Assembly (NCBI GenBank): GCA_028286585.1
Contig: JAQBRI010000008.1
Coordinates: 84,476 to 148,475, forward strand
Length of the DNA stretch: 64,000 nucleotides
Origin: Candidatus Kaiserbacteria bacterium
GTDB lineage: Bacteria > Patescibacteriota > Minisyncoccia > Phycocordibacterales > UBA2100
Direction: 5' to 3'
Of the stretch, positions 2,511 to 55,735 are shown piece by piece (positions within the stretch are counted from its first letter, which is position 1; each line of letters starts with the position of its first letter). The notes beneath the pieces were generated by a model, which had not been told where the DNA came from, did no database searches, and was given only the letters and a program-made list of their open reading frames with translations. Both the position numbers and the translations under genes were made by a program.

Positions 2511-3551
2511 ATGACAGAAACAGAGCATTCGACGCTTTATCGAACATACCGCCCGGGTACCTTCGAGGAAATGAAAGGGCAAGAGCATATCGTTACTGCT
2601 CTTACGCAGTCGATCAAGTCTGGCAAAATTGCTCATGCATATTTATTTTCAGGTGGACGAGGTACCGGCAAAACGACTGCAGCCCGAATCTTGGCCAAGT
2701 CGCTGGGTGTTTCGAATAAAGATATTATCGAAATGGACGCTGCAAGTAATCGCGGCATTGATGACATTCGCGAATTGCGCGAAGGTGTTTGGGTCATGCC
2801 TTTTGAATCTCCCTACAATCTATACATTATCGACGAAGCACACATGCTCACCAAAGAGGCATGGAATGCACTTTTGAAAACGCTTGAGGAACCGCCATCG
2901 CATGTGATATTTGTTTTAGCAACAACCGAGCGTGACAAAGTGCCCGAAACTATACAATCGAGATGCGAAATTCATACCTTTAGACAGCCTTCACGAGAAC
3001 TGCTTTTTGAAACCGTTACGCGTGTTGCAAAAGAAGAAGGCTTTGCGCTTGAACCAGCGGGAGCAGAGCTTGTTGCGTTACTTGCCGAAGGGTCTTTTCG
3101 TGATGCACTTTCGATTTTGCAAAAGGTGCTTGGTTCGGCATCCGGCAAAAAAATCGATATCGCACATGTTGAGCAAATGTCAGGAGCTCCACGTGGAGAA
3201 ATAGTGAGAACTTTTGTGCGAGCTATAGGCGAAAGAAATACGGCACAGGCACTTACTGCAATAGGGATAGCAGTCAAGGAAAATATCGATATGCGTACGT
3301 TCACAAAACTGATTATCAATCGATTGCGAATCGTCCTTCTCACACGTTTTGCACCGGATTTGGCAAATGACCTATCGGCTGAACTAACAGAAGCCGATGC
3401 AACGTTAATAACCGAATTGAGTAAGAACAAAAACGTTACCTCGGACACGCTCCGAACTATCCTAGAAGCCTATTCACAAATGGCATATGCCGCCGTCCCG
3501 CACTTACCGCTTGAGCTAGCAGTGGTCGATATGGCAAAAGAACCTTTGTAA
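2511..3551 (+). CDS. dnaX: DNA polymerase III subunit gamma/tau (short form)
   Basis: The N-terminus 'YRPGTFEEMKGQEHIV' is followed by Walker A 'GGRGTGKTT' and Walker B 'YIIDEAHML', then 'SRC' sensor motifs typical of clamp-loader subunits. Confidence 0.8.
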   Translation: MTETEHSTLYRTYRPGTFEEMKGQEHIVTALTQSIKSGKIAHAYLFSGGRGTGKTTAARILAKSLGVSNKDIIEMDAASNRGIDDIRELREGVWVMPFESPYNLYIIDEAHMLTKEAWNALLKTLEEPPSHVIFVLATTERDKVPETIQSRCEIHTFRQPSRELLFETVTRVAKEEGFALEPAGAELVALLAEGSFRDALSILQKVLGSASGKKIDIAHVEQMSGAPRGEIVRTFVRAIGERNTAQALTAIGIAVKENIDMRTFTKLIINRLRIVLLTRFAPDLANDLSAELTEADATLITELSKNKNVTSDTLRTILEAYSQMAYAAVPHLPLELAVVDMAKEPL

Positions 3552-3596: not shown

Positions 3597-3670
3597 TGGG
3601 AGATCGTCTAATGGTAGGACAGCAGCCTTTGAAGCTGTGAATCTTGGTTCGATCCCAAGTCTCCCAGCCA
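3597..3670 (+). tRNA. tRNA-Gln (anticodon UUG), with encoded CCA
   Basis: Manual fold: acceptor TGGGAGA/TCTCCCA, D-arm GTC-TAATGGTAG-GAC, anticodon stem GCAGC/GCTGT with loop CTTTGAA (UUG), T-arm CTTGG-TTCGATC-CCAAG, discriminator G, then CCA. Confidence 0.9.
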
Positions 3671-5359: not shown

Positions 5360-5491
5360 AAAGGGTATATATTGATAATAACATTACTTATAAATGGGCT
5401 CAGTTGATCGGCAGAAAACGTACATTACTAATGTATTGCAATTTTGCTGAATTAATACCAGAAAGAGATAAGCAAAGTGGCAACACATATA

Positions 5492-7543
5492 CTAAAAGTC
5501 ATCTAATAGTTTTTGCAATTCATCAGGCTCTACAAGCTCGGGTCGTGGTGATACTTCATTTTGCATAAAGTATTCATCTCTTTTCCCTTTTTTTCTTTTT
5601 CCAATGATATTGGAAGTAAGTAAGCTTTTTAAGGCGTCCTGAACATTACGTTGCCCAATTTGCTTATTGGATTGACAAATACGTTTAATATCCGGAGTCG
5701 TTTGTGGTCCTTCAATAAGAATACTTGGAATGTATTCAATCGCCTCACTAATTTTAGATTCCTTTTCTTCAATTTCTCCATTGTAAATCAACGAAGTCTT
5801 TCGCTGAATTTGGCTTTCATCATCAACCATATCGACCTTAAAAGGTTCAATTTCCTTGTCTAAACGATTTTTTCGTTGATAGATAGTAATGCTGTCATTT
5901 GTTTTCTTCATCATTAACAATATATCTACGCTTGCTGCTTTATCTTGACTACCCAGGAGGTGTTCCTTTTTCGGGACGCCCCCATCGAATCTTTCCGGTT
6001 TGCGTAAATGGTCAAGCCAAATGAAGCACACATTATTTTCTCTCATCTTTTTATAACGGTTAAAGAATTTTCTGATTTCTTCGGCTTTTTGTTCTTCCAA
6101 ACCACCTGCAACAGCACGAAATGTATCAATTATGACAACATCTATTTTTTGATTATGTATCGTCTCAATCAATTCTTTTGCCCAGGCATCATCATTTAGA
6201 TTAATATCATCGGCAGGTAGAAAGATTAGGTTGTCTGAGTCTGTCATACCAAGCTGTCTGCCGCGACTTTGAATTTGCCGTTTGCCGTTTTCTGCATCTA
6301 CGTACAGCACTCGACCTTGCTGGGTTGGATATTTTTCTTCACCAAATAAAGGGGCACCGCTTGATATACATTTTGCAAATTCCATAGCCATCCAGGTCTT
6401 ACCTTCACCTGAGATTGAGGCGAGAATCACTATACCTGCTTTTGGAATAAGGTTCGGGATGCGCCATCGATTTGAAGGGAATTCAAGGGCATCGAGCTCA
6501 CTCCATCGCATCGTGCATATTTTTTTCGTTTTTTCTTCAATATCTGGCTTTTTTTCAGCAAAATTATTTCTTTTCGACTGATCTGGATACTTATTGCATA
6601 ACCACTTATAGGCCTCCTTGTTATCAATTTTAAGTGTTTCGGCAACATAAGTAATGGCATTACCTTTTGCCGGAAAGTCACTACTCGTTGTTGCAATGTA
6701 ATTTCCATCACCTTGGCGGCCTTTAAATGTAGCAGTAGTAACACCATCTATAACAAGATGCCCCTGTTTATTAAACTCGGCCTTTTTCCCAAGTTCTGCC
6801 CATACATCAATTGCGGTTTGTTGAATATCGAAACCCTCACGATCCGCGCTAGCTTCAGTGTTCTTCTGACTAACAGGCTCTTCTGCTTTAGATTGCGATG
6901 GAGTATAGGGAAAGTATTGTTCGAGTTCAGTAATCGTATATGTTTTCCCGTTACCATTTTCCTCAGTGATTAAATAAGGTTCAGATTTGTTGTGATAATA
7001 TCCTGGTTTTCTCAACACACGCGTTACGTCCTTTACAGGATCGCCTTTTGAACCATATTTTATTGACCATTGTATTACACCATTTACCACGTTCTTATAT
7101 CGCTCCTGAGTATGTGTATCAATTTTGTCTTCGTTCAACCACCAGAGTGGTTGTAGGCCATTTTTAGTTATAATCCACACTGAAGGTGAGCAGTGAGCTG
7201 TAAATGCCATTTTAAGGTCAGTCTTGCGACTTTCACGATCCGACTCACTAATTTTTTCGTCGTCCTTGCATACATCAAGATCAGCAAAAACTGCATTCAA
7301 TTTCGTTAAAAATTCTTTGTTACGCTTTGTTTTAGCACCAGATTCTCTTAATTGCTCATGTGTAGCAAAAAAAGAATTTGCTGTCTCAAAGATTCCATAA
7401 CCCTGTGCATTTATGGCCTTAAGTTTATCTTCATGAGGATTTTCAAGTGTAATAGGTATTTTTACCTTGTCTTTATCACTGAAACAAACGACTAGTCGTA
7501 TACCTTGGGTCTCGATTGCTTGAATCGAGCTATTAGTTTCCAT
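5492..7543 (-). CDS. Replication protein of the element: an N-terminal primase-like domain fused to a RepA/DnaB-family P-loop ATPase (helicase-like)
   Basis: The C-terminal half has Walker A 'ASISGEGKTWMAMEFA', Walker B 'VVIIDTF' and 'LDHLRK', as in AAA_25/RepA-like replicative ATPases. The N-terminal ~320 aa resemble phage/plasmid primase N-domains. Total 683 aa. Confidence 0.65.
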   Translation of the reverse strand: METNSSIQAIETQGIRLVVCFSDKDKVKIPITLENPHEDKLKAINAQGYGIFETANSFFATHEQLRESGAKTKRNKEFLTKLNAVFADLDVCKDDEKISESDRESRKTDLKMAFTAHCSPSVWIITKNGLQPLWWLNEDKIDTHTQERYKNVVNGVIQWSIKYGSKGDPVKDVTRVLRKPGYYHNKSEPYLITEENGNGKTYTITELEQYFPYTPSQSKAEEPVSQKNTEASADREGFDIQQTAIDVWAELGKKAEFNKQGHLVIDGVTTATFKGRQGDGNYIATTSSDFPAKGNAITYVAETLKIDNKEAYKWLCNKYPDQSKRNNFAEKKPDIEEKTKKICTMRWSELDALEFPSNRWRIPNLIPKAGIVILASISGEGKTWMAMEFAKCISSGAPLFGEEKYPTQQGRVLYVDAENGKRQIQSRGRQLGMTDSDNLIFLPADDINLNDDAWAKELIETIHNQKIDVVIIDTFRAVAGGLEEQKAEEIRKFFNRYKKMRENNVCFIWLDHLRKPERFDGGVPKKEHLLGSQDKAASVDILLMMKKTNDSITIYQRKNRLDKEIEPFKVDMVDDESQIQRKTSLIYNGEIEEKESKISEAIEYIPSILIEGPQTTPDIKRICQSNKQIGQRNVQDALKSLLTSNIIGKRKKGKRDEYFMQNEVSPRPELVEPDELQKLLDDF

Positions 7544-7819
7544 ATTTTTGAACAGCTAGAGGAACTGCATCCACAAGCGTCACCAATTTCTCAAAAAGCA
7601 GAAGAGTATCATCTTCAGATAAGATTTTGCCAGTCTTAATTTCGTGGAGATCTCTGAATTGGTTCAGATATTTTGCTTTATCTAGCATACATCCGCTCAA
7701 GGTTATGCAGGCTCAATCGTGGTGGACCTGCACACCCTTAAAAGGACGTACCCACGATTGATGGAACTCTTTTTTGCGGTGGATGAAGAATAGACTTCAA
7801 TCATTTCTAAACGCAAATA

Positions 7820-7883
7820 AGATAACAAACCAAAAGGTTTATCTTTAAAATTTATCTTATTTTTTATCTATGAAATTATCTTT
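7820..7883. repeat. Cluster of five TTATC(T) heptamer repeats (iteron-like or DnaA-box-core-like) upstream of the replication gene
   Basis: TTATCTT at 7839, 7852 and 7877, TTATCTA at 7864, and an inverted GATAAC at 7820, all in an AT-rich non-coding stretch. Confidence 0.4.
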
Positions 7884-8233
7884 TCTTCGAGAAGTCGGGT
7901 TTGGCATAAATGCCGCCGCCTGTATTCTCTGCTTTCCTAATAACAATATCACATAATATAAGTATGTAAAATTTGATACGTGTATAAGTAAAAAAATGTG
8001 CTTTTGTCATAAATTGTGTAAAATGTATATACACAACCAATATCGAGCCGAAAGGCAAGTGCCTAAACTATCGAGTAATCGATGGCATGGTGCAAAATCG
8101 CGACAAATGTAGAAAACCCGTTATCAGGGCGTTTGTCGCGTTATGCAGGGAAACTTGCATAGGGCCGCAAGGCCTCCTGGTAGCGGGCTTTATGTTGCCC
8201 AGCTATCAGCATTATCAGTAATGCAAAAAAGCT

Positions 8234-9394
8234 ATGAGCAAAATACTTTCATTTCTAAATTTGATCGGCGCTTTTTTAATTTTTTTAGTATATATCGCAA
8301 TAGCACTTACGCTACTTCTTTTTATACCCACATTACTCTTTGGAGGAGGAGTTTGGTTTTATACAGATTATCTTGCGCCTCTCTTAAAATATGTAGATTA
8401 CATAGCAGCCCTACTTTCTATAATCTTTTTGTTTCTTTGCATTTTTCGCAAGTACAGAATATTCGCTGGGTCGGCTCTAGTCTATTGCTCATATGCGATC
8501 GGTGTTGACCTGTGGTTTCAGTCACTCATTAACACCTACATTTCTTTCGGTCCTGTCGGTACTATATTAGGAGTGTTTTTTCTAGGAGTTGGTGTTTTCT
8601 TTACGGGACTTGTTGCACTATTATGGGCTCACTTATTCACCGCATTTTGGTCACTTCTTGGTTCGGGCTTATACATGATTGGAATACGATGGTTTGGTTT
8701 ATATATCGCACAAAATGAGACTGATAGTCAATATGATCCAAATTTGGACGAACCCGATGAGGATGGAATTACAGAGCGAATGATTCAGAAAATGATAAGT
8801 AAAAATGGGAGCAATAAAAATGTAATAGAAGATATTAGCACGGAATATATAGAGCCAAGGCAAGAGATTGTGAAATTCGACGCAGAAGAGTATCTCTCTC
8901 TGCTGAAAATTACAGAAACATTTATTAATAGAGGGAGATCGGACGATCCACCAAGATTTGTTATTTTTATGGGAGGAGTGGGTAGCGGAAAAACGACATC
9001 ACGCAGGGTGAATTTTTCTATCAACTACGTTAATTTTGATTTTGGAGAAATCCATCTCTCGCTAGAAAAAGCATTTGGTGTGAAATTTCCTCGAATTTCG
9101 GAGTATGCCTCTTATGTAAGTGATCTTGTCTTGCGGCAAGCTCTGCAAGAAAGAAAAAAAATCGTCATTGAAATTATAGGTGATAGCTACGCTCTGATTT
9201 CTCCGGTAATTAATGCAATGAAGGGAATCGGATATGACGTCTCTATAGAAGGTATCATAGATGACACTGTTGCAAGTTACGGAAGATATATGTATGCAGT
9301 GGATAAAGATCCTGACTATATCTCGGCAGCCGATACTCAGGAATTAACACTAAGTTTTTTCCATCACTATTTCGGACTGGTACCAGCGCCATGA
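8234..9394 (+). CDS. Membrane-anchored P-loop NTPase (kinase- or zeta-toxin-like C-terminal domain)
   Basis: About five predicted TM helices in the first 160 aa. The soluble C-terminal domain has Walker A 'FMGGVGSGKTTSRR'. Confidence 0.5.
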   Translation: MSKILSFLNLIGAFLIFLVYIAIALTLLLFIPTLLFGGGVWFYTDYLAPLLKYVDYIAALLSIIFLFLCIFRKYRIFAGSALVYCSYAIGVDLWFQSLINTYISFGPVGTILGVFFLGVGVFFTGLVALLWAHLFTAFWSLLGSGLYMIGIRWFGLYIAQNETDSQYDPNLDEPDEDGITERMIQKMISKNGSNKNVIEDISTEYIEPRQEIVKFDAEEYLSLLKITETFINRGRSDDPPRFVIFMGGVGSGKTTSRRVNFSINYVNFDFGEIHLSLEKAFGVKFPRISEYASYVSDLVLRQALQERKKIVIEIIGDSYALISPVINAMKGIGYDVSIEGIIDDTVASYGRYMYAVDKDPDYISAADTQELTLSFFHHYFGLVPAP

Positions 9395-9449
9395 ACCGAA
9401 TGTCTCAGAGGGCAATAGAGTTGCGGTATTAGCGAGACAAGTAGTATAG

Positions 9450-10508
9450 TTGCCTTCATGGAACTATTGGAACAGGAGAAAAATACTGCTTATACAGTCT
9501 AGACAGAATAAAGCCCGCATGAAACTATTCTCTGAACATTTTGCAGAATTAAAAAGCGACGAACAGCTCGAGGCGCTGCATATGGAATTTCCCCAATACG
9601 ATATTGCATACTTAGTACAAGGTGCGTATGGGCTCCGAAGACACACAAAGGAGTGGATGGAAAGCATGTGGACGCTGTATGAGCCATATGCTGATCCACA
9701 TTTCCTCAAGGAGTTCAAAAGGCATTTTACGCAGCGTTCCTGGGAATTGTATTTGGGCGTGACGCTTCTCAATCATGGTTTCAAGTTAGGCGAACATAAG
9801 AGTGCCGGCGCAGACTTTGATGTGCAGGACGTAAATGGTGAACGTATTATGTGGATAGAGGCAATTGCTGTAAACCCGGGAGATGGGGCAGACAGGGTAC
9901 CAGACCATGCGTATGAAGTTGTAAGAAGTATACCTGTGGATGAAATGCTTTTGCGCGTTGCAGCTGCCTTGGACACAAAGCATAAGAAATATCTTTCTGA
10001 TGTAAAAAATGACTTTGTTGCGAAGACGGAGGCATATGTCATAGCAATCGACCGTTCTGAATTGGGTCATGTGGAAATTCCCCCATCACTCATTTTAAAA
10101 GCTCTTTTTGGTGTCGGTCACCAAACGTTGAGTTTTCCAGTACCTGCCATGGACGAGCCTTCAAGAAGCGTCGAACCAAAAAGATCTTGGGGGGCACTAC
10201 CCGAAATTTCAAAGAAAAGTGGTAATCCAGTATCTATGCGTTTTTTCGAGAATCCCGCACATGCTGGTATAAGTGCTGTAATTTATTCCGTGCCGCATGT
10301 AATTAATAGTCCGCGTCTGCCGGATGAGATGGGTGAGCATTTCTACGTTGTCCATAATCCGCACGCTATAAATCCAATCCCCTTTGGCGTATTGCCATTT
10401 GGTGAAGAGTATCGAGTTGATGAGGATGTAATAAACATTATACGAGAAAGGATGGCATATCAATCACCTGATCCTTTTGAATACCTTGCGACTTCCAACG
10501 AAGAATAA
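9450..10508 (+). CDS. Hypothetical protein
   Basis: 352-aa ORF with no recognisable motif. It may contain a PD-(D/E)xK-like 'DFDVQD...IMWIEAIAV' segment, which is weak. Confidence 0.4.
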   Translation: MPSWNYWNRRKILLIQSRQNKARMKLFSEHFAELKSDEQLEALHMEFPQYDIAYLVQGAYGLRRHTKEWMESMWTLYEPYADPHFLKEFKRHFTQRSWELYLGVTLLNHGFKLGEHKSAGADFDVQDVNGERIMWIEAIAVNPGDGADRVPDHAYEVVRSIPVDEMLLRVAAALDTKHKKYLSDVKNDFVAKTEAYVIAIDRSELGHVEIPPSLILKALFGVGHQTLSFPVPAMDEPSRSVEPKRSWGALPEISKKSGNPVSMRFFENPAHAGISAVIYSVPHVINSPRLPDEMGEHFYVVHNPHAINPIPFGVLPFGEEYRVDEDVINIIRERMAYQSPDPFEYLATSNEE

Positions 10509-10509
10509 C

Positions 10510-11316
10510 TTACTTTGTAGGGTGTGCTTTCGTGATTTCACCTTTGTAGCCCAGAGAAGCAAATATTGCTTTCCAGCTCAGAAAAAGAATCTCACTCGGC
10601 GTTAAGTTCATATGCATCTGTATAACCGGATGACCAGTTGAATTTTTGATGACACTTGATTTCAAAACGATTGTGGAAGTTACTATGGAATCGAGTCCAG
10701 CAGCATGCAAAAAACCATTTCGTATTTTATCGTACAAGTCTTTAATGACATCATCTAGGTTATTTATTCTCAGATCGTCTCGCTCAGATGGTCTATAACA
10801 ACTTACAACCCTCTGCACTTCTTCTGGAGTTAGAAAGGTTGAATAAAACCATATTAGTCTTGCTCTCATGGATGGTGGGTGTTGAGCAGCATGCTCAGCA
10901 GCAAGTTTTTCAAGCGAATCGACGTTTTTAATTTCGTCAAATTTGTTTTTTAGAAAATCCACAAAACTTACACGAGGTTCCGCATGTTCTTTGGTAAATT
11001 TATCCACGATGGAAAACATCACGGCGATTGCTATGTTTGACCAGGCCATGTCCGCAAACATTTCGGGAAGGGTGCGACGTTTTCCTTCTTCTTCAACCAA
11101 TAGAACAGAAACGGACTCCATAATAACCTTGAAAAAAATAAGTAACATCCCAAGTGAGATGATTTCTTCAGATTTCAATTGTGATAGAAAAATATGTAGT
11201 TCTTTCTCGTTTTTGAAATCCATGGCCCAGCCATTTCCAAAACATTTGCTTCCTGGACCTAAAATTTCTAAGATTTGAGCAACCCGCTCTTTAATTGTTG
11301 GTACATCACCTATCAT
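10510..11316 (-). CDS. Hypothetical protein with a HEPN-like Rx4H motif (Abi-like candidate)
   Basis: The 268-aa alpha-helical protein carries 'RNGFLHAAG' (R-x4-H) in its C-terminal third, as in HEPN/AbiD-F-type RNases. Confidence 0.4.
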   Translation of the reverse strand: MIGDVPTIKERVAQILEILGPGSKCFGNGWAMDFKNEKELHIFLSQLKSEEIISLGMLLIFFKVIMESVSVLLVEEEGKRRTLPEMFADMAWSNIAIAVMFSIVDKFTKEHAEPRVSFVDFLKNKFDEIKNVDSLEKLAAEHAAQHPPSMRARLIWFYSTFLTPEEVQRVVSCYRPSERDDLRINNLDDVIKDLYDKIRNGFLHAAGLDSIVTSTIVLKSSVIKNSTGHPVIQMHMNLTPSEILFLSWKAIFASLGYKGEITKAHPTK

Positions 11317-11396
11317 AAATTCACATTATATAGACTATTAATCAAGTTAGAAGTACGCCATTTTGAACCTGATTAATTGATTTAATCATACTTTAG

Positions 11397-11810
11397 TTGT
11401 TATTCATGAGAGTAGCGTTACAATATTCACATATGAAAGCAAGAGGAGGATCACGGCCAAACGCAGGACGTAAAAGGGGCTTAGCAAGCATAACAGCTGA
11501 ACAGGCTAGAAACTATGCCATACAACGCATTACAGCCGAATTAGAACCAATTCTTACTGGGCAGATAGAGGCTGCAAAGGGAATGTATTACGAAGTCATC
11601 GATGACCAAGGTGAAAAAGTTGTTTACCAGCAGAAACCAAATGCACGGGTTGCAGAGTATCTTATCAGTCAGGTAATAGGAAAAGCAAAAGAAACTACGG
11701 ATCTAAATATTAAAGTACCATTTTCTCTATATGAGCTCGCAAAAATGAGGGATGCGGAGAGATTAAAAATGACTGATGGACAACACTATAGAGTTGTAAA
11801 TAATAAGTGA
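11397..11810 (+). CDS. Hypothetical small basic protein, possibly DNA-binding
   Basis: N-terminal 'GGSRPNAGRKRG' basic stretch (AT-hook or terminase-small-subunit-like); 137 aa. Confidence 0.35.
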   Translation: MLFMRVALQYSHMKARGGSRPNAGRKRGLASITAEQARNYAIQRITAELEPILTGQIEAAKGMYYEVIDDQGEKVVYQQKPNARVAEYLISQVIGKAKETTDLNIKVPFSLYELAKMRDAERLKMTDGQHYRVVNNK

Positions 11811-11819
11811 AAATACACA

Positions 11820-12440
11820 ATGAGCTGGATATCAAACAATATTATTGGAATTATAGGAATTGTCGTAGGCGGTTTTATTGCATACCATGTATATTTTTTG
11901 TCTCTGCAGCTCAACTTGAAGGACAAACTCGTATACAAAGACAGTGTGCGAAAGAAAGTTGAACCCTTATTGGCCAGAATAAATAATGGTATTAGTAGTA
12001 AATGCGAACTAGTCAACGTTAAGAAGTATTTGAAATACTATCCGCACAATAATGACTTGAATAAAGATGGCTACACATATCTGGGTGCAGAATTGAAAGC
12101 ATTGCAGTTTGATGGTGTTGAATTTTTTTGTGGCGTGAGAGAGCTCTTCAAAAAACCGGATGGCAGCTATACACTCAAAAAAGAGGAAAGTACAGTGCGT
12201 GAAGAGTATAATGCTCTAGAGGCGGGTGTAATCCCTTATGAGTGGATTGAATATATAGATGGCAGAGGTGATGAGTATAGTTATCGTCCGCAGTTTTTCA
12301 CCCAATTTAAGGGTGAAAGGAAGTCGCCATATAAACACCTGTCATATTACATTCAGAGTGATACGTATTACGAAGGTAGAGATCCAATGGATTTTAAGTG
12401 GCGTAGAATAGAAGTAGAACAAAATAAGTCACTAGTTTGA
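11820..12440 (+). CDS. Hypothetical membrane-anchored protein
   Basis: N-terminal TM helix followed by a 206-aa ORF. It sits 10 nt after the upstream gene. Confidence 0.4.
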   Translation: MSWISNNIIGIIGIVVGGFIAYHVYFLSLQLNLKDKLVYKDSVRKKVEPLLARINNGISSKCELVNVKKYLKYYPHNNDLNKDGYTYLGAELKALQFDGVEFFCGVRELFKKPDGSYTLKKEESTVREEYNALEAGVIPYEWIEYIDGRGDEYSYRPQFFTQFKGERKSPYKHLSYYIQSDTYYEGRDPMDFKWRRIEVEQNKSLV

Positions 12441-12465
12441 ATATGAAGCAGTTTTATGAACAAAA

Positions 12466-12495
12466 AAGGTTCGAATAGCCTCTACAGTGTCCAGC
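12466..12495 (+). repeat. Degenerate copy (copy 0) of the cassette-boundary repeat
   Basis: AAGGTTCGAATAGCCTCTACAGTGTCCAGC against the consensus GGTTCCAACATCGTCCCAGACTGCCAGC. Confidence 0.4.
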
Positions 12496-12549
12496 AAAAT
12501 TAAAAACGGTATCTGACATCGTTTCCACTACATTCACACTACATAAAAC

Positions 12550-12580
12550 AAATCGCCCGAGAACATCGGGCGATTGTGGC
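12550..12580 (-). terminator. Rho-independent terminator for the minus-strand receiver-domain gene
   Basis: Hairpin AATCGCCCGA-GAACA-TCGGGCGATT, followed on the minus strand by a TTGTTTTAT run. Confidence 0.5.
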
Positions 12581-12596
12581 ATTAATTTCCGGCATG

Positions 12597-12938
12597 TTAC
12601 GCCAGCAACTTTCGTAAGTAGTCTGGCACATCATCTTTGTTTACCGAGTGGTCGCAGCCATAGTGCATAAGACGTCTCCTGAGATCCTCGTCAGAAGACG
12701 TTGCTAGCATCGGACCTCTATAGCCTTGTTCACGGAATGATGCAGCCAAGGCATGCCCATATTCGTACCGAGAAAGTTTGCCGTCGAGTACGATTGCTGC
12801 GAGTTCATTCTGGTGAGCGTGGAAGTGTTCCGAGGCTTCCTTGAAGTTAAACGCTTGGAGAAGCTCGAAATTTGGCATGTTTTCCGCATACCGATCTTGT
12901 TCGTGTATCAAATCTTCGACAATCAAAATTTTAAACAT
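12597..12938 (-). CDS. Stand-alone response-regulator receiver (REC) domain protein
   Basis: 'KILIVEDL' acidic pocket, phospho-acceptor Asp in 'AIVLDGK', and conserved Ser/Thr and Lys positions; 113 aa. Confidence 0.5.
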   Translation of the reverse strand: MFKILIVEDLIHEQDRYAENMPNFELLQAFNFKEASEHFHAHQNELAAIVLDGKLSRYEYGHALAASFREQGYRGPMLATSSDEDLRRRLMHYGCDHSVNKDDVPDYLRKLLA

Positions 12939-12986
12939 GGTGACCTCCTTGATGATCTGGAGAGAACTCTAACATAGTTGTAAAAA

Positions 12987-13014
12987 GGTTCCAACCTCGT
13001 CCCAGGCAGCGAGC
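12987..13014 (+). repeat. Cassette-boundary repeat, copy 1
   Basis: GGTTCCAACCTCGTCCCAGGCAGCGAGC, 20 nt upstream of the ATG at 13034. Confidence 0.6.
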
Positions 13015-13033
13015 AATCTGATATAGTTATGTC

Positions 13034-13432
13034 ATGAATCCCGATCCACGCCTACATCACACAGCAAAGCGTATACAACGAGGAAGCCTAGGGAATGTAA
13101 TCGAAATGTTTGCATTACTTGGTTGTAAAGTGTCGTATCGCCCAGAAGGCAATGGTTGGGCAATGATTGGCCAAGAGGGACTTAATTTTGATATCCAGCT
13201 CATTGAGGTAGATGGTATACCGTTAGAAGGTGAGACTCGAAGAGATTCACAAATCTCCTTTGTTTCTGAAAATCCTACTGATCATATTAATAAAGTCCAT
13301 ATATGGGCTGAAGAAAAAAACCTTACATTTATTCAAAAGTCATGGAACGAACGTGAGCATTACTTTGATTTGCCTGATCTCTTTGTTGACTGGGTTGTAG
13401 AAGTAATGCATATATCGGTTGTTGAAAGCTAA
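13034..13432 (+). CDS. Hypothetical protein (cassette gene)
   Basis: 132-aa ORF bounded by repeat copies 1 and 2. Confidence 0.4.
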   Translation: MNPDPRLHHTAKRIQRGSLGNVIEMFALLGCKVSYRPEGNGWAMIGQEGLNFDIQLIEVDGIPLEGETRRDSQISFVSENPTDHINKVHIWAEEKNLTFIQKSWNEREHYFDLPDLFVDWVVEVMHISVVES

Positions 13433-13433
13433 A

Positions 13434-13461
13434 ATTCTAACATCGTCCCATACAGCCAGCC
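13434..13461 (+). repeat. Cassette-boundary repeat, copy 2
   Basis: ATTCTAACATCGTCCCATACAGCCAGCC, starting 2 nt after the stop at 13432. Confidence 0.6.
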
Positions 13462-13485
13462 AATATTGTTTTTTTAATGTAAACT

Positions 13486-14004
13486 ATGTCGATGACACTT
13501 ATTATTATCCTGTTAATCATCATAGGGTTAGCAGTTGTATTTTCTTTAATTCAAAAGGGCGAGAATGTGGAAGTCGAGCATCCGGAAGTACATTCTATTC
13601 AAGAGCAGAAAGATCCCATGCCCTATGTAAGGAAGCAGTATTTTATGACAAATTCAGAGTTAAATTTTTTTAGAAATCTTGAAAAAATAAACCAAAATAA
13701 ATATTTTATTGTTCCTCAAGTATCGTTATCCGGACTAGTTTCAGTTGCTGATAATGAATTGATGAGAAAAACATATAACAATAAAATCGATAGAAAGTCA
13801 GTAGATTTTGTTCTATTTGATAAAGCTACTTTCCTTCCAAAATTGGTAATCGAATTAGATGATAGATCTCATGATAGATATGATAGAAAAATAAGAGATG
13901 AATGGGTCGATGATGTAATGAAGAAGGTGGGTATAAGGATAGTTCACGTCAAGGCTTCTTATTCCTACAATTTGGTGCCAATCGAAGGTCTTTTAGCTGG
14001 TTAA
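13486..14004 (+). CDS. Membrane-anchored DUF2726-like protein (PD-(D/E)xK nuclease-like fold)
   Basis: N-terminal TM helix, then 'FMTNSELNFFRNLE...FIVPQVSL...VDFVLFDK...LVIELDD', which matches the DUF2726 / restriction-endonuclease-like core. Confidence 0.5.
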   Translation: MSMTLIIILLIIIGLAVVFSLIQKGENVEVEHPEVHSIQEQKDPMPYVRKQYFMTNSELNFFRNLEKINQNKYFIVPQVSLSGLVSVADNELMRKTYNNKIDRKSVDFVLFDKATFLPKLVIELDDRSHDRYDRKIRDEWVDDVMKKVGIRIVHVKASYSYNLVPIEGLLAG

Positions 14005-14016
14005 GTATTTTAAAAT

Positions 14017-14045
14017 AGTTCCAACGTGGTCCCAGACTGTCAGCC
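14017..14045 (+). repeat. Cassette-boundary repeat, copy 3
   Basis: AGTTCCAACGTGGTCCCAGACTGTCAGCC. Confidence 0.6.
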
Positions 14046-14114
14046 CTTGACTTAAGTATTTTTGAATGGTAATTTCTTGAAAGAAGTTTCCACTCCCATA
14101 AGGAGCAATTAAAG

Positions 14115-14459
14115 ATGAAGTTCGTTTTCATAGCACATCCAATGTCGGGAGACATAGAAGGAAATATGCAGAAAGTTGTTGCTATCTGTAGAAGTATTCA
14201 TTCCGAAGAAATTATTCCCGTCTTTCCAAGTGCACTGACAAGGAGATATCTCACGCCAGATCCACGAGACCGCGCACTCGCCCAGACGATGATCGAAGAA
14301 TACTTTCGTCGAAGGATCATCGATGAAGTCTGGCTCTATGGCACTGATTTAACAGATGGCATGAAGAGAGAGGTGCGTTTTGCGGTTACCTACAACATTC
14401 CTGTTGTGGCACAGACACCTCAAATGCAACTTTCCCTCGACACATACTTAAAAGTTTGA
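14115..14459 (+). CDS. DUF4406-like (nucleoside 2-deoxyribosyltransferase-like fold) small protein
   Basis: 'MKFVFIAHPMSGD' N-terminus and 'DEVWLYG', typical of the DUF4406/NDT-like family; 114 aa. Confidence 0.4.
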   Translation: MKFVFIAHPMSGDIEGNMQKVVAICRSIHSEEIIPVFPSALTRRYLTPDPRDRALAQTMIEEYFRRRIIDEVWLYGTDLTDGMKREVRFAVTYNIPVVAQTPQMQLSLDTYLKV

Positions 14460-14526
14460 CATCACCTTCGTTTGTATTAAAAACCCTCCGGTCTACATTG
14501 ACGGCGGGTTTTCATTTATCCAAAAA

Positions 14527-14554
14527 GGTTCCAACATCGTCCCAGATTGCAAGC
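14527..14554 (+). repeat. Cassette-boundary repeat, copy 4
   Basis: GGTTCCAACATCGTCCCAGATTGCAAGC. Confidence 0.6.
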
Positions 14555-14612
14555 TAGACGTGTTATTGCAAACGTGGTATTGTTTTGTTCAGAACACAGG
14601 AGGAGAGAGATT

Positions 14613-15032
14613 ATGTCTCAAAATGTTCGCTCGTACTGCGACGCGATTTTCGCGTCAATTCCGACGACCACGATCGAAGTCAAGACTATCGAAGGCACCA
14701 AACGCTTTGTCTTTGGTTTGGTTCAAAGTCAAACGTTGTGCGGCGACGATCTGGGAACATACAACAACTACCAAATCGTCGAGATACGAAGAAGGGGCGA
14801 GGCATCGACGGCAATACTCTCTCTTCAAATGGACACGCGACAATGTGGGCCGACACAAGTCTACATTCGCGGTGAGGCTGCCAAAGATTGGTTTGCTGCG
14901 TCTTCAAAGTGGTTTCCAATCCTTGAAATAACAGCAGATATGTTCGAGGAAGGTGATACACTGATCGTTCCTGTTGCGATCGAGTTTCTCGCACGACTGG
15001 TTCTTTATCGCATCCGAAAACAGGCCTCATAA
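14613..15032 (+). CDS. Hypothetical protein (cassette gene)
   Basis: 'AGGAGGAGAGAGATT' RBS precedes the ATG at 14613. The track ORF starts upstream at 14547 without an RBS. Confidence 0.45.
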   Translation: MSQNVRSYCDAIFASIPTTTIEVKTIEGTKRFVFGLVQSQTLCGDDLGTYNNYQIVEIRRRGEASTAILSLQMDTRQCGPTQVYIRGEAAKDWFAASSKWFPILEITADMFEEGDTLIVPVAIEFLARLVLYRIRKQAS

Positions 15033-15053
15033 ACTTGAGTACACGAAAATCAA

Positions 15054-15092
15054 AAAGGCCGCCTCACCAGTATTGGTTTGGGCGGCTTTTCA
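15054..15092 (+). terminator. Rho-independent terminator after the 14613-15032 gene
   Basis: GGCCGCC...GGCGGC stem followed by TTTTC. Confidence 0.4.
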
Positions 15093-15102
15093 TATGGCAA
15101 AA

Positions 15103-15129
15103 ATTCCAACATCGTCCCAGACTGCCAGC
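15103..15129 (+). repeat. Cassette-boundary repeat, copy 5
   Basis: ATTCCAACATCGTCCCAGACTGCCAGC, the closest match to the consensus. Confidence 0.6.
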
Positions 15130-15190
15130 AGGCATTTTTTAAAAAGAAAACGCCCCCGAAAGAGAGCGTCTCCGTCGGCGGGCAGTTTAG

Positions 15191-15559
15191 TTAGGGTCGT
15201 AAGTACAAATTTCTGTCCTTGAGTCGTTTACATATTGCGCCAATAATATATGAGCTAAAACCGGCTGCGTGTAGGTCAGACCGGGTCTTTTTCAACAGGT
15301 CGCTCACAGTCACAATATTGTTTTGTTCAAGCTTATTGGTTGTAGTTATGCTCAGATCAAGTACATGCACTCCTTCATTGGTCATCGCATCTTCAACATG
15401 CTCGTCAGGAAGAATATCACTGGCCTCGCTTAGTAGTGCTTGGTAGACTTGAAATGCTTCAAGCGTCATTGAATTGCGAAGATGGCCGACTAACCGGCAT
15501 GCTATACACGGCTCAAGCGGCATACAGCCTGCTCGATGGTCAAGAACTAGCACTTTCAT
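15191..15559 (-). CDS. Small protein with an RNA polymerase alpha-subunit C-terminal-domain-like (HhH) domain
   Basis: The C-terminus 'LDLSITTTNKLEQNNIVTVSDLLKKTRSDLHAAGFSSYIIGAICKRLKD' aligns with alpha-CTD '[48 protein letters not shown]'. Start taken at MKVLVLD. Confidence 0.45.
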   Translation of the reverse strand: MKVLVLDHRAGCMPLEPCIACRLVGHLRNSMTLEAFQVYQALLSEASDILPDEHVEDAMTNEGVHVLDLSITTTNKLEQNNIVTVSDLLKKTRSDLHAAGFSSYIIGAICKRLKDRNLYLRP

Positions 15560-15620
15560 GTCATGACTCCCTAAAGGTTCTTTTATATTTATTGCATGAT
15601 AAAAACATTTTGTCAAATAA

Positions 15621-15647
15621 ATTCCAACATTGTCCCATGTTGTAGCC
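15621..15647 (+). repeat. Cassette-boundary repeat, copy 6
   Basis: ATTCCAACATTGTCCCATGTTGTAGCC, lying between two minus-strand genes but still in + orientation. Confidence 0.55.
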
Positions 15648-15759
15648 AACAGCAAAATGAAAACCTCGGTCTGGATATAGATCTAGTCCGGAAGCGATTA
15701 TGTAAAAAAATAAACGGCACCCAAAATTAATCGGGTGCCGTCAGTTTATAGCAAAGAAC

Positions 15760-16290
15760 TTAGATTCTGTAGGTGACCTCTCGCGGGCCGTTGTCCCGAA
15801 GGAAATTCGAAATCCCTTTGAGGTTAGGTCGACTATCTTCCTTGGAGCTTGCAATGTGGCGTAAGAAGCTACGAACGAAATGGAATGCCTGGCGCCCGGG
15901 CCAATATTCGACGTACACTTCCATACTCTCGACTTCCCAGAGATAAAATCCGGAAGTCTGGCTGACGAGTGTCATTAGGACCACGGCACGAGGAAGATTG
16001 GGAAGCTGGTTCTCGCGCCCAAAGGGAGTGCGAACCGACGGCGAGGCAAAAAGAACCTCCGCTTGCACCTTCCTTACCGCTTTGACAGCCCACAATTCTT
16101 CTGCAGGAGGAAGAGCAATATTGAACGCCGCGGAGTTGTCGCGAGAGATGATGGATTCATAGTCGAGTCGGTACTGTGTGAGGAAAATCTCTGTATTGAG
16201 ATTATCCTTAAGCACCTGGGCGATCATGTTCAGCACGTACAGATCGGTCGCGCTGCCAGTCTGTGGCTTGGCTTTCTTTCTTCCAAACAT
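15760..16290 (-). CDS. Hypothetical protein
   Basis: 176-aa ORF with no recognisable motif. Confidence 0.4.
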   Translation of the reverse strand: MFGRKKAKPQTGSATDLYVLNMIAQVLKDNLNTEIFLTQYRLDYESIISRDNSAAFNIALPPAEELWAVKAVRKVQAEVLFASPSVRTPFGRENQLPNLPRAVVLMTLVSQTSGFYLWEVESMEVYVEYWPGRQAFHFVRSFLRHIASSKEDSRPNLKGISNFLRDNGPREVTYRI

Positions 16291-16461
16291 TTTATACCTC
16301 TTTCAGGTATATAGAGCCATATTGCTCCATACCTGCCCTTTCGGCAGTGAATATATTCTACGACTATAATGCTATTTAGTCAATGATTCCTGTAAGCGGG
16401 TCAGTATCGATATTGTTCAAGGAATAAGCAAATTGTTTCAAAAATTTGCTATAATCTCTAT

Positions 16462-17031
16462 ATGAGAAAAGTTGTACTATTTTTGCATCAGTCACTTGAT
16501 GGCTATTGTGGCACCAAAGAGGGAGGATTAGATTGGATTCCTTTTACTCCGGCACTTGAAAAGTATGCTGAACGACTCGTGCAAACAGTCGGATCTCCAA
16601 TGTATGGACGTGTCACATATGAACTAATGAAAAGCTGGTGGCCGACTCTTTTAAATGATGCCTCAGCATCAAAGCATGATAAAAAACATGCTGAATGGAT
16701 TGAAAATGTAGAGAAAATCGTTTTCTCTACTACACTTGGCGAACAAGACTGGAATAATACAAGAGTAATAAGTAGCAATGTAGAAGAAGAGGTTAAGAAA
16801 CTTAAAATGGGTGAAGGGAAAGACTTGGTAATATTTGGCAGTCCAACACTTGCTCGTTCATTAATGGAAATGGATCTTATCGACGAGTTTCAATTTACCA
16901 TTAGTCCAGTTATTCTTGGAGACGGAATAACCTTTATGAGAAGTATTACAAATCGAGTGAATCTTGAGCTTTTGAATTCCGAATCACTAGACGGTGGAAT
17001 CGAAGCACTTCACTACAAGATTGTTAGATAA
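16462..17031 (+). CDS. Dihydrofolate-reductase-like protein (RibD C-terminal domain family)
   Basis: 'LDGYCGTKEGGLDWIP...DLVIFGSPTLARSL', as in YwjB/RibD_C reductases. Confidence 0.65.
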   Translation: MRKVVLFLHQSLDGYCGTKEGGLDWIPFTPALEKYAERLVQTVGSPMYGRVTYELMKSWWPTLLNDASASKHDKKHAEWIENVEKIVFSTTLGEQDWNNTRVISSNVEEEVKKLKMGEGKDLVIFGSPTLARSLMEMDLIDEFQFTISPVILGDGITFMRSITNRVNLELLNSESLDGGIEALHYKIVR

Positions 17032-17089
17032 TAAATTTAAACTATCTTAATGATGGTCAAGGTTTCAAAATAATCGTATAATTATATAT

Positions 17090-17515
17090 ATGACAACAAT
17101 AAGTCCTTGGATTAATTTTAATGGTAATGCAGAAGAAGCATTTACTTTTTATAAATCTGTTTTTGGTGGAGACTTTACAAAGTTGGTTCGTTTTAGTGAT
17201 CTTGCCGGTCCGGAATTTCCGGTTGCAGAAGAAGAGGCGGACAAAATCATGCAAATTGTTTTGCCTATTGGTGGCGCGATGCTTATAGGAAATGATGTAC
17301 CTGCAATTATGGGAAAAGTAAGTGAAAATGAAAATAGAAGTAAAATTCATCATGCAGTAGAAAGCAAAGAGGAGGCTGAAAGAATATTTAATGAGCTTTC
17401 TGTCGGAGGACAAGTAGAGGGGGCAATGGGGGAAAGTCCTTGGGGCACAGACGCCGGTATGTTTAGAGATACATATGGTATTGAGTGGATTATAGAATTT
17501 AATCCGAACAAATAA
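17090..17515 (+). CDS. PhnB-like / VOC (glyoxalase) superfamily protein
   Basis: 'WINFNGNAEEAFTFYKSVFGG' N-terminus, typical of PhnB/3-demethylubiquinone-9 3-methyltransferase-like VOC proteins. Confidence 0.65.
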   Translation: MTTISPWINFNGNAEEAFTFYKSVFGGDFTKLVRFSDLAGPEFPVAEEEADKIMQIVLPIGGAMLIGNDVPAIMGKVSENENRSKIHHAVESKEEAERIFNELSVGGQVEGAMGESPWGTDAGMFRDTYGIEWIIEFNPNK

Positions 17516-17552
17516 ACCAATATAGAACCGGATTTTTACATAAAAAAATCGC

Positions 17553-17813
17553 TTACTGAATGCGATCATCAGTAAGCGATACATTTTCTCCCCAATGTAC
17601 GTATTCAGGATTTTCGGGTCCAGAATATATCATGTATTGTTCGATGTCACAGCACGGACAGTTGTGAGCATCATCAAGCAATTCATTCTTGGAATTATGC
17701 TCCCAGATACACTCGCAAAAGCTACATTTATGCTTATGCGAGCCTTTTAGTAGCTCTATCAGCAGTTGGAAAAGCACAACAACTATGTAGCATATGAGAA
17801 AAATAATATCCAT
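17553..17813 (-). CDS. Small membrane-anchored Cys-rich protein
   Basis: A TM helix, then the CxxC...CPCC cluster 'CSFCECIWEH...HNCPCCD'. Confidence 0.3.
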   Translation of the reverse strand: MDIIFLICYIVVVLFQLLIELLKGSHKHKCSFCECIWEHNSKNELLDDAHNCPCCDIEQYMIYSGPENPEYVHWGENVSLTDDRIQ

Positions 17814-17834
17814 GGCTTGCCACTCCCTGGTTAT

Positions 17835-18218
17835 TCATTCCGATATATTCAGGCCCACAATTCTTGAAGGATCCAGCGTACTGCCGCCTTGCGGAAACAG
17901 TGTGACCGCCTCTCCCGAGATCGGTGAGAGTAAGAAGAGGCGTCCTTCTTCGGCATCCGAAACATTGTAGATAAGCAGGCTTGCGGAGTAGTCGAGGCGG
18001 TCACTGACATTCCATTCACCACCGTCCTCCATCTTGGCGACCCATTTGAGTGTGATATTGAGATCCCCGCAGTTGTCGGATGGAAAACCGGGGACTGGTT
18101 TACCTTCGGTTACCTCGACGGCGGCGATTTCTCCACGGTAGAGATAGTCTTCACCCTCATTTCGAACTTCGAGCTGACCACCTTTATAACGCTGAAGGTC
18201 TTGGGTAGTTAACTTCAT
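17835..18218 (-). CDS. Hypothetical protein
   Basis: 127-aa ORF. Confidence 0.4.
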   Translation of the reverse strand: MKLTTQDLQRYKGGQLEVRNEGEDYLYRGEIAAVEVTEGKPVPGFPSDNCGDLNITLKWVAKMEDGGEWNVSDRLDYSASLLIYNVSDAEEGRLFLLSPISGEAVTLFPQGGSTLDPSRIVGLNISE

Positions 18219-18330
18219 GACGGAATCCTTCTTTCGCCCAGAACAGGCTGGACAGAATGTAGCATATGTTGCACAAAAATTCCACTACTATTCCATGCTG
18301 CCATTGGCTACAGTTTGGTATACTTTGTAT

Positions 18331-18966
18331 ATGAAGTTACTACTTACATCTGCGGGAATAACAAATCAGTCAATTGCCGATTCGTTGATTGATCTTGTTG
18401 GTAAAAAAGTCGAAGATATAAAAATTGGTTTTATTCCAACAGCAGCAAATATTGAAAAGGGAAATAAGGATTGGTTCATTCGGCAATTTATAGATCTCTA
18501 TGCGTATGGATTTACTTGGATCGATATTGTTGATATTTCGATTCCAGAAATTGATTGGAAGAATCGCTTTGCCGAGACGGACGTAATTATGGTAAGCGGA
18601 GGTAATACTTTTTACTTACTCGAGCAAATTCGTAAAGCCGGATTTGCCGAATGGCTTAAAACGATACAGGATACAAAAGTATATGTGGGAATTAGTGCAG
18701 GAAGTATTGTTGCCACCCCTTCAATTGCGATAGCCGCTGTAGATAATGGTGATATCAATTATTCGAATCTAACAGATCTGAATGGTTTTGGATTAGTAGA
18801 TTTTGAAGTTTCGCCTCACACTCCTGAACAGGTAAGTAACGAAGGGAATCTGAATTATATAAAATCTTCGGGAGCAAAGCTATATGGAATAGACAATCAG
18901 AGTGCTATTAGGGTTGTGGATGGGGAAGTAGGCGCTGTCTCCGAAGGTGTCTGGATTGAGTACTAA
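18331..18966 (+). CDS. Peptidase E-like (S51 family, class I glutamine amidotransferase-like fold)
   Basis: 'MKLLLTSAGI' N-terminus and 'SGGNTFYLL...GISAGSIV' catalytic Ser context. Confidence 0.65.
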   Translation: MKLLLTSAGITNQSIADSLIDLVGKKVEDIKIGFIPTAANIEKGNKDWFIRQFIDLYAYGFTWIDIVDISIPEIDWKNRFAETDVIMVSGGNTFYLLEQIRKAGFAEWLKTIQDTKVYVGISAGSIVATPSIAIAAVDNGDINYSNLTDLNGFGLVDFEVSPHTPEQVSNEGNLNYIKSSGAKLYGIDNQSAIRVVDGEVGAVSEGVWIEY

Positions 18967-55722: not shown

Positions 55723-55735
55723 GTCTATACAATAA

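Follow-up and report, generated by a model that had tools for sequence, protein, structure and literature searches.

What is the short, directly oriented repeat that separates a row of small, unrelated genes in a Candidatus Kaiserbacteria genome, and how did the genes come to lie there? The row is part of a stretch of 64,000 nucleotides (the window hereafter; contig JAQBRI010000008.1 of assembly GCA_028286585.1, positions 84,476 to 148,475), in which it follows a tRNA-Gln gene and an integrative island that encodes a large serine recombinase. On the strength of comparative sequence analysis, the source of all evidence presented here, we propose that the repeat, a motif of ~35 nt (AAAAGGTTCCAACATCGTCCCAGACTGCCAGCAA) that forms single-strand arrays, is probably a cassette attachment site at tRNA-Gln, and that the array belongs to a tRNA-Gln-anchored system of cassettes mobilized in trans.

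A one-sided motif between single-gene cassettes

Repeat finding and direct reading of the sequence gave six plus-strand copies (copies 1 to 6 in Table 1), whose starts are 446, 584, 510, 575, and 518 bp apart. We also scanned the window with a 37-nt weight matrix trained on 92 motif copies, all of them from other genomes and none from the window. Exactly seven matches exceeded 8 bits, all on the plus strand and with scores of 18.9 to 47.8 bits, against a top score of 7.1 bits in a shuffled window control (n = 20). Six of these matches have the starts of the array copies, and the seventh begins at 55730; its 3' end (CTCCCAGCCA) is identical over 10 nt to that of tRNA-Gln(ttg). An earlier note, made from the letters of the window, had counted seven copies in the array. 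Its six strong copies stand and the copy at 55730 had escaped it, but the degenerate one that it placed at 12466 scores -5.3 bits. This variant site (AAAAAAGGTTCGAATAGCCTCTACAGTGTCCAGCAAA) has the layout of the motif, an A-rich leader followed by GGTTC-N18-CCAGC, and a core that agrees with the motif core at 6 of 18 positions; judged by its sequence, we do not count it as a member of the motif family.

To place the motif in a wider context, one genome per species was scanned with the pattern TTCYAACATYGTCCCA, and a metagenome scan added 120 stretches. The species-level scan returned many lone matches, mostly chance-expected at the length of the pattern, and clustered, multi-copy, same-strand matches that were all in Patescibacteria. 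Arrays occur in Parcubacteria/Paceibacterota, Saccharibacteria, and the Nomura-, Wolfe-, Kaiser-, Berkel-, and Moraniibacteria. In total there are 438 motif matches in 189 loci, the loci being 1-15 kb fragments of metagenome-assembled genomes or metagenome contigs; ~170 loci are left once ~20 high-GC loci with a single match, probably unrelated, are set aside. None of the 189 loci has matches on both strands. The array-bearing loci of these candidate phyla radiation (CPR) bacteria have a GC content of roughly 28-55%. Conservation extends from -5 to +29 relative to GGTTCC (consensus AAAAA/GGGTTCCAACATCGTCCCAGACTGCCAGCAA) and stops sharply, with none flanking the block on either side; over 395 copies, the sequence that follows CCAGCAA(T) on the right was not conserved, nor did an inverted GGAAC recur at any fixed offset. 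The array had no BLAST match among plasmid and phage sequences, and no published description of the motif or the array was found in a searched literature that lacks most subscription journals.

Matches to the 20-mer GTTCCAACATCGTCCCAGAC in viral contigs were set apart as unrelated to the arrays: 33 of 33 belong to one family of 60-70% GC, in a conserved stretch that looks coding. The reverse strand of the 20-mer would encode ...VWDDVGTFDG... in these IMG/VR contigs (L121-L153), and the exact match looks like a coincidence with the CPR motif.

The 105 loci with at least two sites provided 235 intervals with a median length of 544 bp (interquartile range 411-687 bp), of which 127 hold one plus-strand open reading frame (ORF), 71 one minus-strand ORF, and 37 something else. 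Thus 36% of the single-gene cassettes (71/198) run antisense to the motif. On the plus strand, the stop codon lies -8 to +6 nt from the next site in 75 of the 127 cassettes, often within the A-rich leader, and the next plus-strand ATG follows the site by at most 40 nt in 76 of them. Minus-strand ORFs, meanwhile, keep ~50 nt on either side. Cargo across the arrays includes NUDIX, GNAT, and HAD proteins, methyltransferases, Bro-N, a YafQ toxin, an aquaporin, AhpC, and other accessory genes. In the window, the heterogeneity of the cargo that the earlier note described is borne out, as are the orientations of the genes on the minus strand (12597-12938 and 15191-15559), both of which have terminators of their own. 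Of the domains named there, DUF2726 and the RNA polymerase (RNAP) alpha-CTD-like protein were recovered, the REC domain stayed below threshold (E = 0.009), and a supposed DUF4406 protein belongs to Pfam DUF7768 instead.

A conserved sequence of ~25 nt, CTAGACAGAACCTAACATAGATTGCAT, lies directly upstream of motifs in L069 (2244-2267, oriented coordinates), L246, L190, L283, and L181. It is the 5' region of minus-strand cassettes, with a ribosome-binding site and an ATG on the opposite strand, and may be a shared outward promoter/leader module that uses the TTGGAA in the reverse complement of the motif.

Anchoring at tRNA-Gln and traces of cassette movement

Each of the 34 tRNA-Gln genes in the collected loci points the same way as the motif array; for 27 of them the first motif follows downstream within 2.5 kb, mostly at a distance of one cassette length. 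Two contexts recur, SerRS-x-Dus-DnaX-tRNA-Gln(ttg)-array and FtsE-FtsX-...-tRNA-Gln(ctg)-array; the window contains both (tRNAs at 3597 and 54888), and FtsE/FtsX-like genes precede the arrays of L036, L056, and L072, all three with tRNA-Gln(ctg). At least 11 loci without a full tRNA have an orphan tRNA-Gln 3' fragment (GGTTCGATCCCTAGTCTGCCAGCAAT) one cassette length before the first motif. This fragment is 23 nt long, GGTTCGATCCCTAGTCTGCCAGC-AAT, and sits behind assorted housekeeping genes. We favor the explanation that the 5' part of the tRNA, being useless, decayed up to a site that is still selected. Orphan fragments start at, or within 5 nt of, GGTTC in L033 (oriented 3025-3126), L035 (4399), L028 (754), and L089 (1178 and 4262), and the genes directly before them are mutually unrelated (tRNA-Pro, YceG, an S1 protein, and an HI0933-like protein).

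The motif and the tRNA-Gln end have both ends in common, GGTTC-N18-CCAGC (28 nt) in the former and GGTTC-N13-CCAGC (23 nt) in the latter, and their crossover-proximal ~13 nt agree at 10 of 13 positions (CCAGACTGCCAGC in the motif, CTAGTCTCCCAGC in the tRNA arm). The core of the motif is unlike the tRNA segment and 5 nt longer; the correspondence is limited to GGTTC and the last ~8 nt. We compared the last four nucleotides of the motif with nucleotides 71-74 of the resident tRNA-Gln, and found an identity of 0.905, as against 0.773 +/- 0.028 with shuffled tRNAs. None of 2000 shuffles reached 0.905; the shuffles ignore kinship of the loci, yet the variant classes span several unrelated contigs. 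Covarying tips are GAAC (L265, L037), GAGC (L217), and CAAC (L072, L105, L166). We propose the 3' part of tRNA-Gln(ttg), positions 3646-3668, as the primary, attB-type attachment site of this locus. Chimeras of a tRNA-Gln 5' part joined to the motif, which a crossover at GGTTC would be expected to leave, were searched for and not found.

Pairwise comparison of loci led to several observations on where cassettes are joined. First, L033 and L283 have one cassette in common (87% identity) between unrelated neighbors, and rare left/middle variants of the downstream motif (AGTTCTAxCGTCG) travel with it, as does a rare 3' tip (CCAyCCCT) of the upstream motif. Second, the cassette start in L238 and L273 is 100% identical, with homology from just after CCAGC, and this cassette follows a motif in one of them but a tRNA-type fragment in the other. 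Third, L197 and L257 have the left flank and the motif in common up to GACTGC and diverge beyond. These breakpoints put the exchange point near CTGC|CAGC, and hence a cassette consists of CAGCAA, a short leader, the ORF, the stop/A-leader, and most of the motif. Loci also differ by whole units: both flanks of L168 and L242 are 95-96% identical, with an extra cassette of ~950 bp and a second motif in L168, and L165 and L202 have homologous flanks with five motifs in one and one in the other.

We suggest the following model, the first part of which is shown by comparative sequence evidence. Single-gene mobile cassettes insert serially at the tRNA-Gln 3' end and so build up an integron-like chromosomal array. 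Each cassette ends, on its 3' side, in the greater part of the 35-nt site, namely the A-rich leader, often with the stop codon of the ORF, followed by GGTTCCAACATCGTCCCAGACTGC, and strands are exchanged near CTGC|CAGC. The tRNA stays intact because the CAGCAA to the right of the exchange point is common to, or inherited from, the tRNA end. The second part goes further. The motif would serve as an attP-type arm and the tRNA-Gln 3' end as the matching attB-type arm, a pairing suggested by the common distal GGTTC, the similar proximal ~13 nt, and the position of GGTTC 5 bp further out in the motif. The recombinase would act in trans, the best candidate being a large serine recombinase like that encoded at 3608-5359. 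Plus-strand cassettes, which have almost no room for a promoter, may rely on transcription that starts upstream or at the site; minus-strand cassettes would bring their own promoter region and terminator.

A candidate enzyme and the competing explanations

The earlier note had the array lie inside the serine-recombinase/primase island. This part of its account is not supported: the SerRS-x-Dus-DnaX-tRNA-Gln-array synteny is found in other genomes without the island, and relatives of the recombinase occur with no motif nearby. The island is therefore independent and landed between the tRNA and an older array, and on this comparison of gene order we treat the array as a chromosomal feature of the tRNA-Gln locus and the island as a separate element.

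The recombinase of the island, which is 100% identical to a protein of a Candidatus Kaiserbacteria metagenome-assembled genome, belongs to a family of >2400 homologues, mostly from Parcubacteria, with a single, distant match among viral contigs. In every examined context with a detected tRNA, the 3' end of the recombinase gene overlaps the 3' end of the tRNA, which is tRNA-Asn or tRNA-Gln, or tRNA-His for one distant relative, and a primase gene (Prim-Pol, AAA_25, or D5) adjoins the recombinase gene in the family's islands. A AGTTAGGAA-like conserved sequence directly after the tRNA end is probably the P' arm of this family; the form (C)A(A)GT(T/G)AGGAA(C/T) follows the end of tRNA-Asn or tRNA-Gln in L157, L160-L163, L285, and L286 and at 3671-3690 of the window. 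The order tRNA-Gln, recombinase island, array recurs in L244 and in L037, where a 125-aa remnant of the recombinase is left, and family members lie upstream of the arrays of L249 and L269, in which no tRNA was detected. For the island of the window, the variant site 12462-12498 is probably the right junction (attR, P arm), and this site has the GGTTC-N18-CCAGC geometry of the motif. In L037, a canonical motif, its 3' end matching the tRNA, lies 2.5 kb downstream of the remnant island and is presumed to be the right end of that island. In attP sites of large serine recombinases, the distal (zinc-ribbon-domain) element is reportedly set ~5 bp further out than in the attB partner, with a similar proximal sequence. 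Because of the junction geometry, the 5-bp shift of GGTTC, and the motif in L037, a large serine recombinase is our leading candidate for the cassette enzyme, an assignment that we make tentatively and think somewhat more apt to fail than to hold.

Several points weigh against the proposed cassette system and its enzyme, and we gather them here. No recombinase is encoded in or adjoining the arrays, and Pfam searches of 114 flanking ORFs revealed no recurrent recombinase family. Clustering of all locus ORFs likewise gave no recurrent recombinase except that of the island in a few loci, and a XerD search of 1332 locus ORFs had one match only, in L076. Seven other loci that encode relatives of the island recombinase lack the motif; the motif core and the island arm in the window disagree at 12 of 18 positions; and the P' arm AGTTAGGAA is not conserved downstream of the motif, which over 395 copies is one-sided, whereas the known sites of large serine recombinases consist of two half-sites. 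The products of a standard attP x attB reaction are inert and should not be reusable, yet insertion seemingly recurs at the same tRNA, and L286 does have two islands of this family next to each other. Informative cassette polymorphisms are only a handful, and we observed neither circular intermediates nor empty sites in the loci. In the L168/L242 pair, the lone L242 site resembles the distal and not the proximal copy of L168, an ambiguous pattern that fits a further-left crossover or a deletion by homologous recombination. Finally, the motif possibly has a promoter role besides recombination.

A crossover at the left end of the motif, as the L168/L242 pair would have it, was considered and is outweighed by four other comparisons; we take the pair to reflect single-nucleotide polymorphisms or a deletion by homologous recombination. 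The single XerD match, L076 4195-5142 on the minus strand, is Xer-like (E = 7e-41 against Escherichia coli XerD) and the sole tyrosine recombinase among the 1332 ORFs; its 3' end abuts the last motif of that array, maybe by chance. Among the larger ORFs of the window, the serine recombinase was the one recombinase that Pfam recognized.

If the motif were instead a dedicated promoter or operator, read for example by a CPR-specific sigma or transcription factor, the arrays would be clusters of co-controlled genes. The block is sharply bounded and, at 35 nt, promoter-sized. In the 76 plus-strand cassettes with an ATG close behind the site there is no room for another promoter, and where a hairpin precedes a plus-strand cassette a fresh transcription start is needed. 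We nevertheless regard this explanation as improbable, since the orientation of the motif is constant in all 189 loci while 71 of 198 single-gene cassettes are reversed. The motif contains no sigma-70-type hexamer pair, and a promoter scan found the array no richer than shuffled sequence. The matrix scan placed no motif at the housekeeping genes of the 64-kb window, and the motif is strongly conserved in related genomes; the earlier note had named the opposite outcomes as refuting its reading, and its preference for a cassette-boundary or recombination site over a promoter is supported. A promoter also leaves unexplained the anchoring at tRNA-Gln, the covariation of four nucleotides, the interchange of motif and tRNA-type site before an identical cassette, and the insertion or deletion of single cassettes. 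A sigma-54 site (GG-N10-GC), an extracytoplasmic function sigma site (GGAAC-N16-CGTC), a sigma-32 site, and a dif site were each rejected on reading the motif sequence.

About equally unlikely, in our judgment, is that the motifs are inert att scars of larger tRNA-Gln-targeting islands that arrived in series and decayed, with no cassette system active today. In favor of scars, the same tRNA-Gln end is a target of recombinase islands, L286 holds a pair of adjacent islands of this recombinase family, the tRNA 3' end also occurs as orphan fragments, and there is no recombinase in cis. Scars, however, would copy the tRNA end and drift, whereas the 28-nt core, which is not of tRNA type, is near-invariant from 28 to 55% GC and across several phylum-level lineages. 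Nor would scars account for units as regular as those described above, with one ORF in an interquartile range of 411-687 bp and stop codons fused to the site, or for contigs whose 95-96% identical flanks differ by exactly one cassette.

The motif might also act in RNA, as tRNA-like punctuation or as a processing or termination signal in transcripts that start from the tRNA-Gln gene. It is always on the tRNA strand and directly follows stop codons, and its ends mimic the start of the tRNA-Gln T-loop and the 3' end of the acceptor. We consider this very unlikely: single-strand folds of seven copies read on the plus strand and three read on the minus strand have z-scores of -1.6 to +0.7 relative to shuffles and no shared hairpin, no Rfam match at E <= 1 was obtained in 12300-16000, the acceptor-like strand has no partner, and the terminators of minus-strand cassettes would stop read-through. 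Insertion, deletion, and sharing of cassettes at the site would remain unexplained as well. Folding of the motif as a tRNA was rejected on inspection, which gave no partner for a T-stem or an acceptor.

The notion that the motif is a mere patch of homology for cassette swaps by natural transformation and RecA, with no site-specific enzyme, draws on the natural competence of Patescibacteria and on the L168/L242 pair, where a crossover at any point along the motif's long identical 5' part would suit the pattern; it has very little going for it in our view, given that the same cassette sits behind the motif and behind a tRNA-type site in different loci (sites that share only GGTTC and ~8 nt, and therefore too little for homologous recombination), that breakpoints cluster at the 3' tip, that a patch of 35 nt would be at RecA's lower limit, and that strict conservation across phyla suggests recognition by a protein.

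Known systems and other features of the window

The proposed attachment-site arrays come closest in layout and behavior to integrons, including sedentary chromosomal integrons and CALINs (clusters of attC sites lacking integron-integrases). In both, cassettes of ~0.5 kb mostly hold a single, often promoterless ORF and end in a site whose orientation is fixed whatever the strand of the ORF, crossover takes place at one extremity of the site, the cargo is heterogeneous (GNAT, NUDIX, toxins), and gain and loss proceed by the cassette; CALINs, too, have no adjacent integrase. Both defining features of integrons, IntI and attC, nevertheless fail, as the earlier note had found by eye and as Pfam searches, single-stranded DNA folds, and an inverted-repeat search confirm. 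No IntI adjoins the array. There is no inverted repeat across the sites, and since the motif folds no better than shuffles and has no shared hairpin, it does not qualify as an attC. In attC sites structure is conserved but sequence is not, whereas here ~35 nt of sequence are conserved without a palindrome or a single-stranded fold. Instead of an attI beside intI, the 3' end of tRNA-Gln is the proposed primary site, and the host range is Patescibacteria.

In staphylococci, the staphylococcal cassette chromosome elements (SCC, including SCCmec) are units of 3-60 kb that target rlmH (orfX) by means of Ccr large serine recombinases, with repeats that copy the end of the target; the ccr genes are normally in the island, and many units without recombinase genes are mobilized in trans. 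Serial accretion at the 3' end of one conserved gene, direct repeats that overlap the gene end, and, in our model, mobilization in trans of units without recombinase genes by a large serine recombinase are common to SCC and the arrays, which differ in their single-gene units, their tRNA target, a repeat core that is no copy of the target, and an enzyme that is only a candidate. Tandem tRNA islands, such as those formed by accretion of cis-mobilizable and integrative and conjugative elements (CIME-ICE), employ tyrosine integrases; their repeats exactly copy the tRNA 3' end, and the integrase adjoins the tRNA. Here, too, insertion at the tRNA 3' end follows the orientation of the tRNA and keeps it intact, att sites lie between the units, and units without an integrase would be mobilized in trans; the arrays, in contrast, lack an adjacent integrase, and their repeat has a 28-nt core of its own that exceeds the tRNA segment by 5 nt.

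The motif and the tRNA end resemble the attP and attB sites of large serine recombinases in that the distal element, GGTTC, is common to both and displaced outward by 5 bp in the element-borne site, while the proximal ~13 nt are similar. This geometry recurs in the attR arm of a recombinase island that occupies the same tRNA. Unlike attP and attB, the motif is one conserved half-site with no symmetric half-sites around a central dinucleotide, and the P' arm of the neighboring family is absent from the cassettes. The pdif modules of Acinetobacter plasmids, mobilized by XerC/D, are bounded by 28-bp imperfect palindromes (11-6-11) in alternating orientation. They resemble the arrays in having small gene modules between 28-bp sites and a recombinase encoded elsewhere, but the motif lacks symmetry, all its copies are direct, and breakpoints fall at its end instead of its center. 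In likely chemistry and accretion logic, the arrays recall SCC composite islands and tandem tRNA islands.

To our knowledge, integrons, which CPR bacteria essentially lack, are the only well-understood stockpile of single-gene cassettes. It could be that Patescibacteria as a whole own an analogue of the integron that is independent of IntI and attC, with a tRNA-Gln landing pad, a one-sided ~35-nt site, and a trans-acting recombinase (possibly a large serine recombinase working on half-sites), as a main route by which these symbionts with tiny genomes gain and shuffle accessory genes; we hold the case for and against this wider claim to be about evenly balanced. If true, it would make a second, independently evolved cassette platform, conserved near base for base in Saccharibacteria, Parcubacteria, and other lineages of Patescibacteria, and array-based gene capture would be a convergent solution. 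It would also account for a flexible gene pool in genomes of <1 Mb. Used as a probe of 20-28 nt, the motif retrieves accessory-gene hotspots of uncultivated CPR bacteria from metagenomes, and genetic tools for Saccharibacteria can use the tRNA-Gln end together with the motif as a defined landing pad. Should the enzyme be a large serine recombinase, repeated recombination at a one-sided site would extend the known abilities of these enzymes.

Table 1. Features of the 64-kb window; matrix scores are those of the 37-nt weight matrix.
Feature	Position	Strand	Remarks
tRNA-Gln(ttg)	3597-3670	+	3' part 3646-3668, GGTTCGATCCCAAGTCTCCCAGC
Integrative island	3608-12461	-	Between tRNA-Gln(ttg) and array; several unknown genes besides those named below
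Large serine recombinase	3608-5359	-	Pfam
AAA_25 primase-helicase	5492-7543		Within island; Pfam
LOOT RNA	8060-8175	+	Rfam RF03000; 84.4 bits, gathering score 46.4
Variant site	12462-12498	+	AAAAAAGGTTCGAATAGCCTCTACAGTGTCCAGCAAA; GGTTC-N18-CCAGC geometry, other core
Cassette with REC-like gene	12499-12980	-	Gene 12597-12938; own terminator 12551-12575
Motif copy 1 (M site)	12981-13017	+	45.2 bits
Cassette gene, 132 aa	13034-13432	+	No Pfam family; stop codon abuts next motif
Motif copy 2	13427-13463	+	34.2 bits
Cassette gene, DUF2726	13486-14004	+	Pfam
Motif copy 3	14011-14047	+	43.1 bits
Cassette gene, DUF7768	14115-14459	+	Pfam
Motif copy 4	14521-14557	+	47.8 bits
Cassette gene, 139 aa	14613-15032	+	No assigned family; hairpin 3' of gene, before next motif
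Motif copy 5	15096-15132	+	43.3 bits; nearest to consensus
Cassette gene, RNAP alpha-CTD-like	15191-15559	-	Pfam; own terminator 15146-15173
Motif copy 6	15614-15650	+	18.9 bits; 3' end diverged
Five small genes past last intact motif	15760-18966		No intact sites; one sub-threshold site at 18272
tRNA-Gln(ctg), second anchor	54888-54959	+	Downstream of FtsE-FtsX-CTP synthase
Single cassette gene, 240 aa	55000-55722	+	No Pfam family; between tRNA-Gln(ctg) and copy 7
Motif copy 7	55730-55766	+	44.5 bits; one gene downstream of second tRNA-Gln

Pfam searches of the larger ORFs describe the window outside the recombinase island as ordinary chromosome, and at the gathering threshold Rfam 15 reported tRNAs and the LOOT RNA as the only RNA families in the window. 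The LOOT RNA is flanked in the island by the primase-helicase gene and a gene for a membrane/P-loop protein. Exact-protein look-ups with DnaX and two cassette proteins of the window returned the same sample only, on contigs that end at the tRNA, and thus no alternative contexts.

Genes of the window recur in arrays elsewhere. Homologues of the DUF2726 cassette gene are the tRNA-proximal cassettes in L036 and L042. Past the last intact motif, the genes at 17090-17515, 17835-18218, and 18217-18966 have homologues in or next to the arrays of L026, L104, L072, and L067, those of the latter two genes being cassettes in L104, L072, and L067, and the site at 18272 scores -4.5 bits on the motif matrix. 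The region 15760-18966 is probably a decayed continuation of the array that lost its sites. At the second anchor, 18 nt from the 5' end of tRNA-Gln(ctg), TGCGGGATCGTCTAATGG, are exactly repeated on the plus strand at 54759-54776, 112 nt upstream of the real tRNA; this duplicate may be the remnant of an older rearrangement there.

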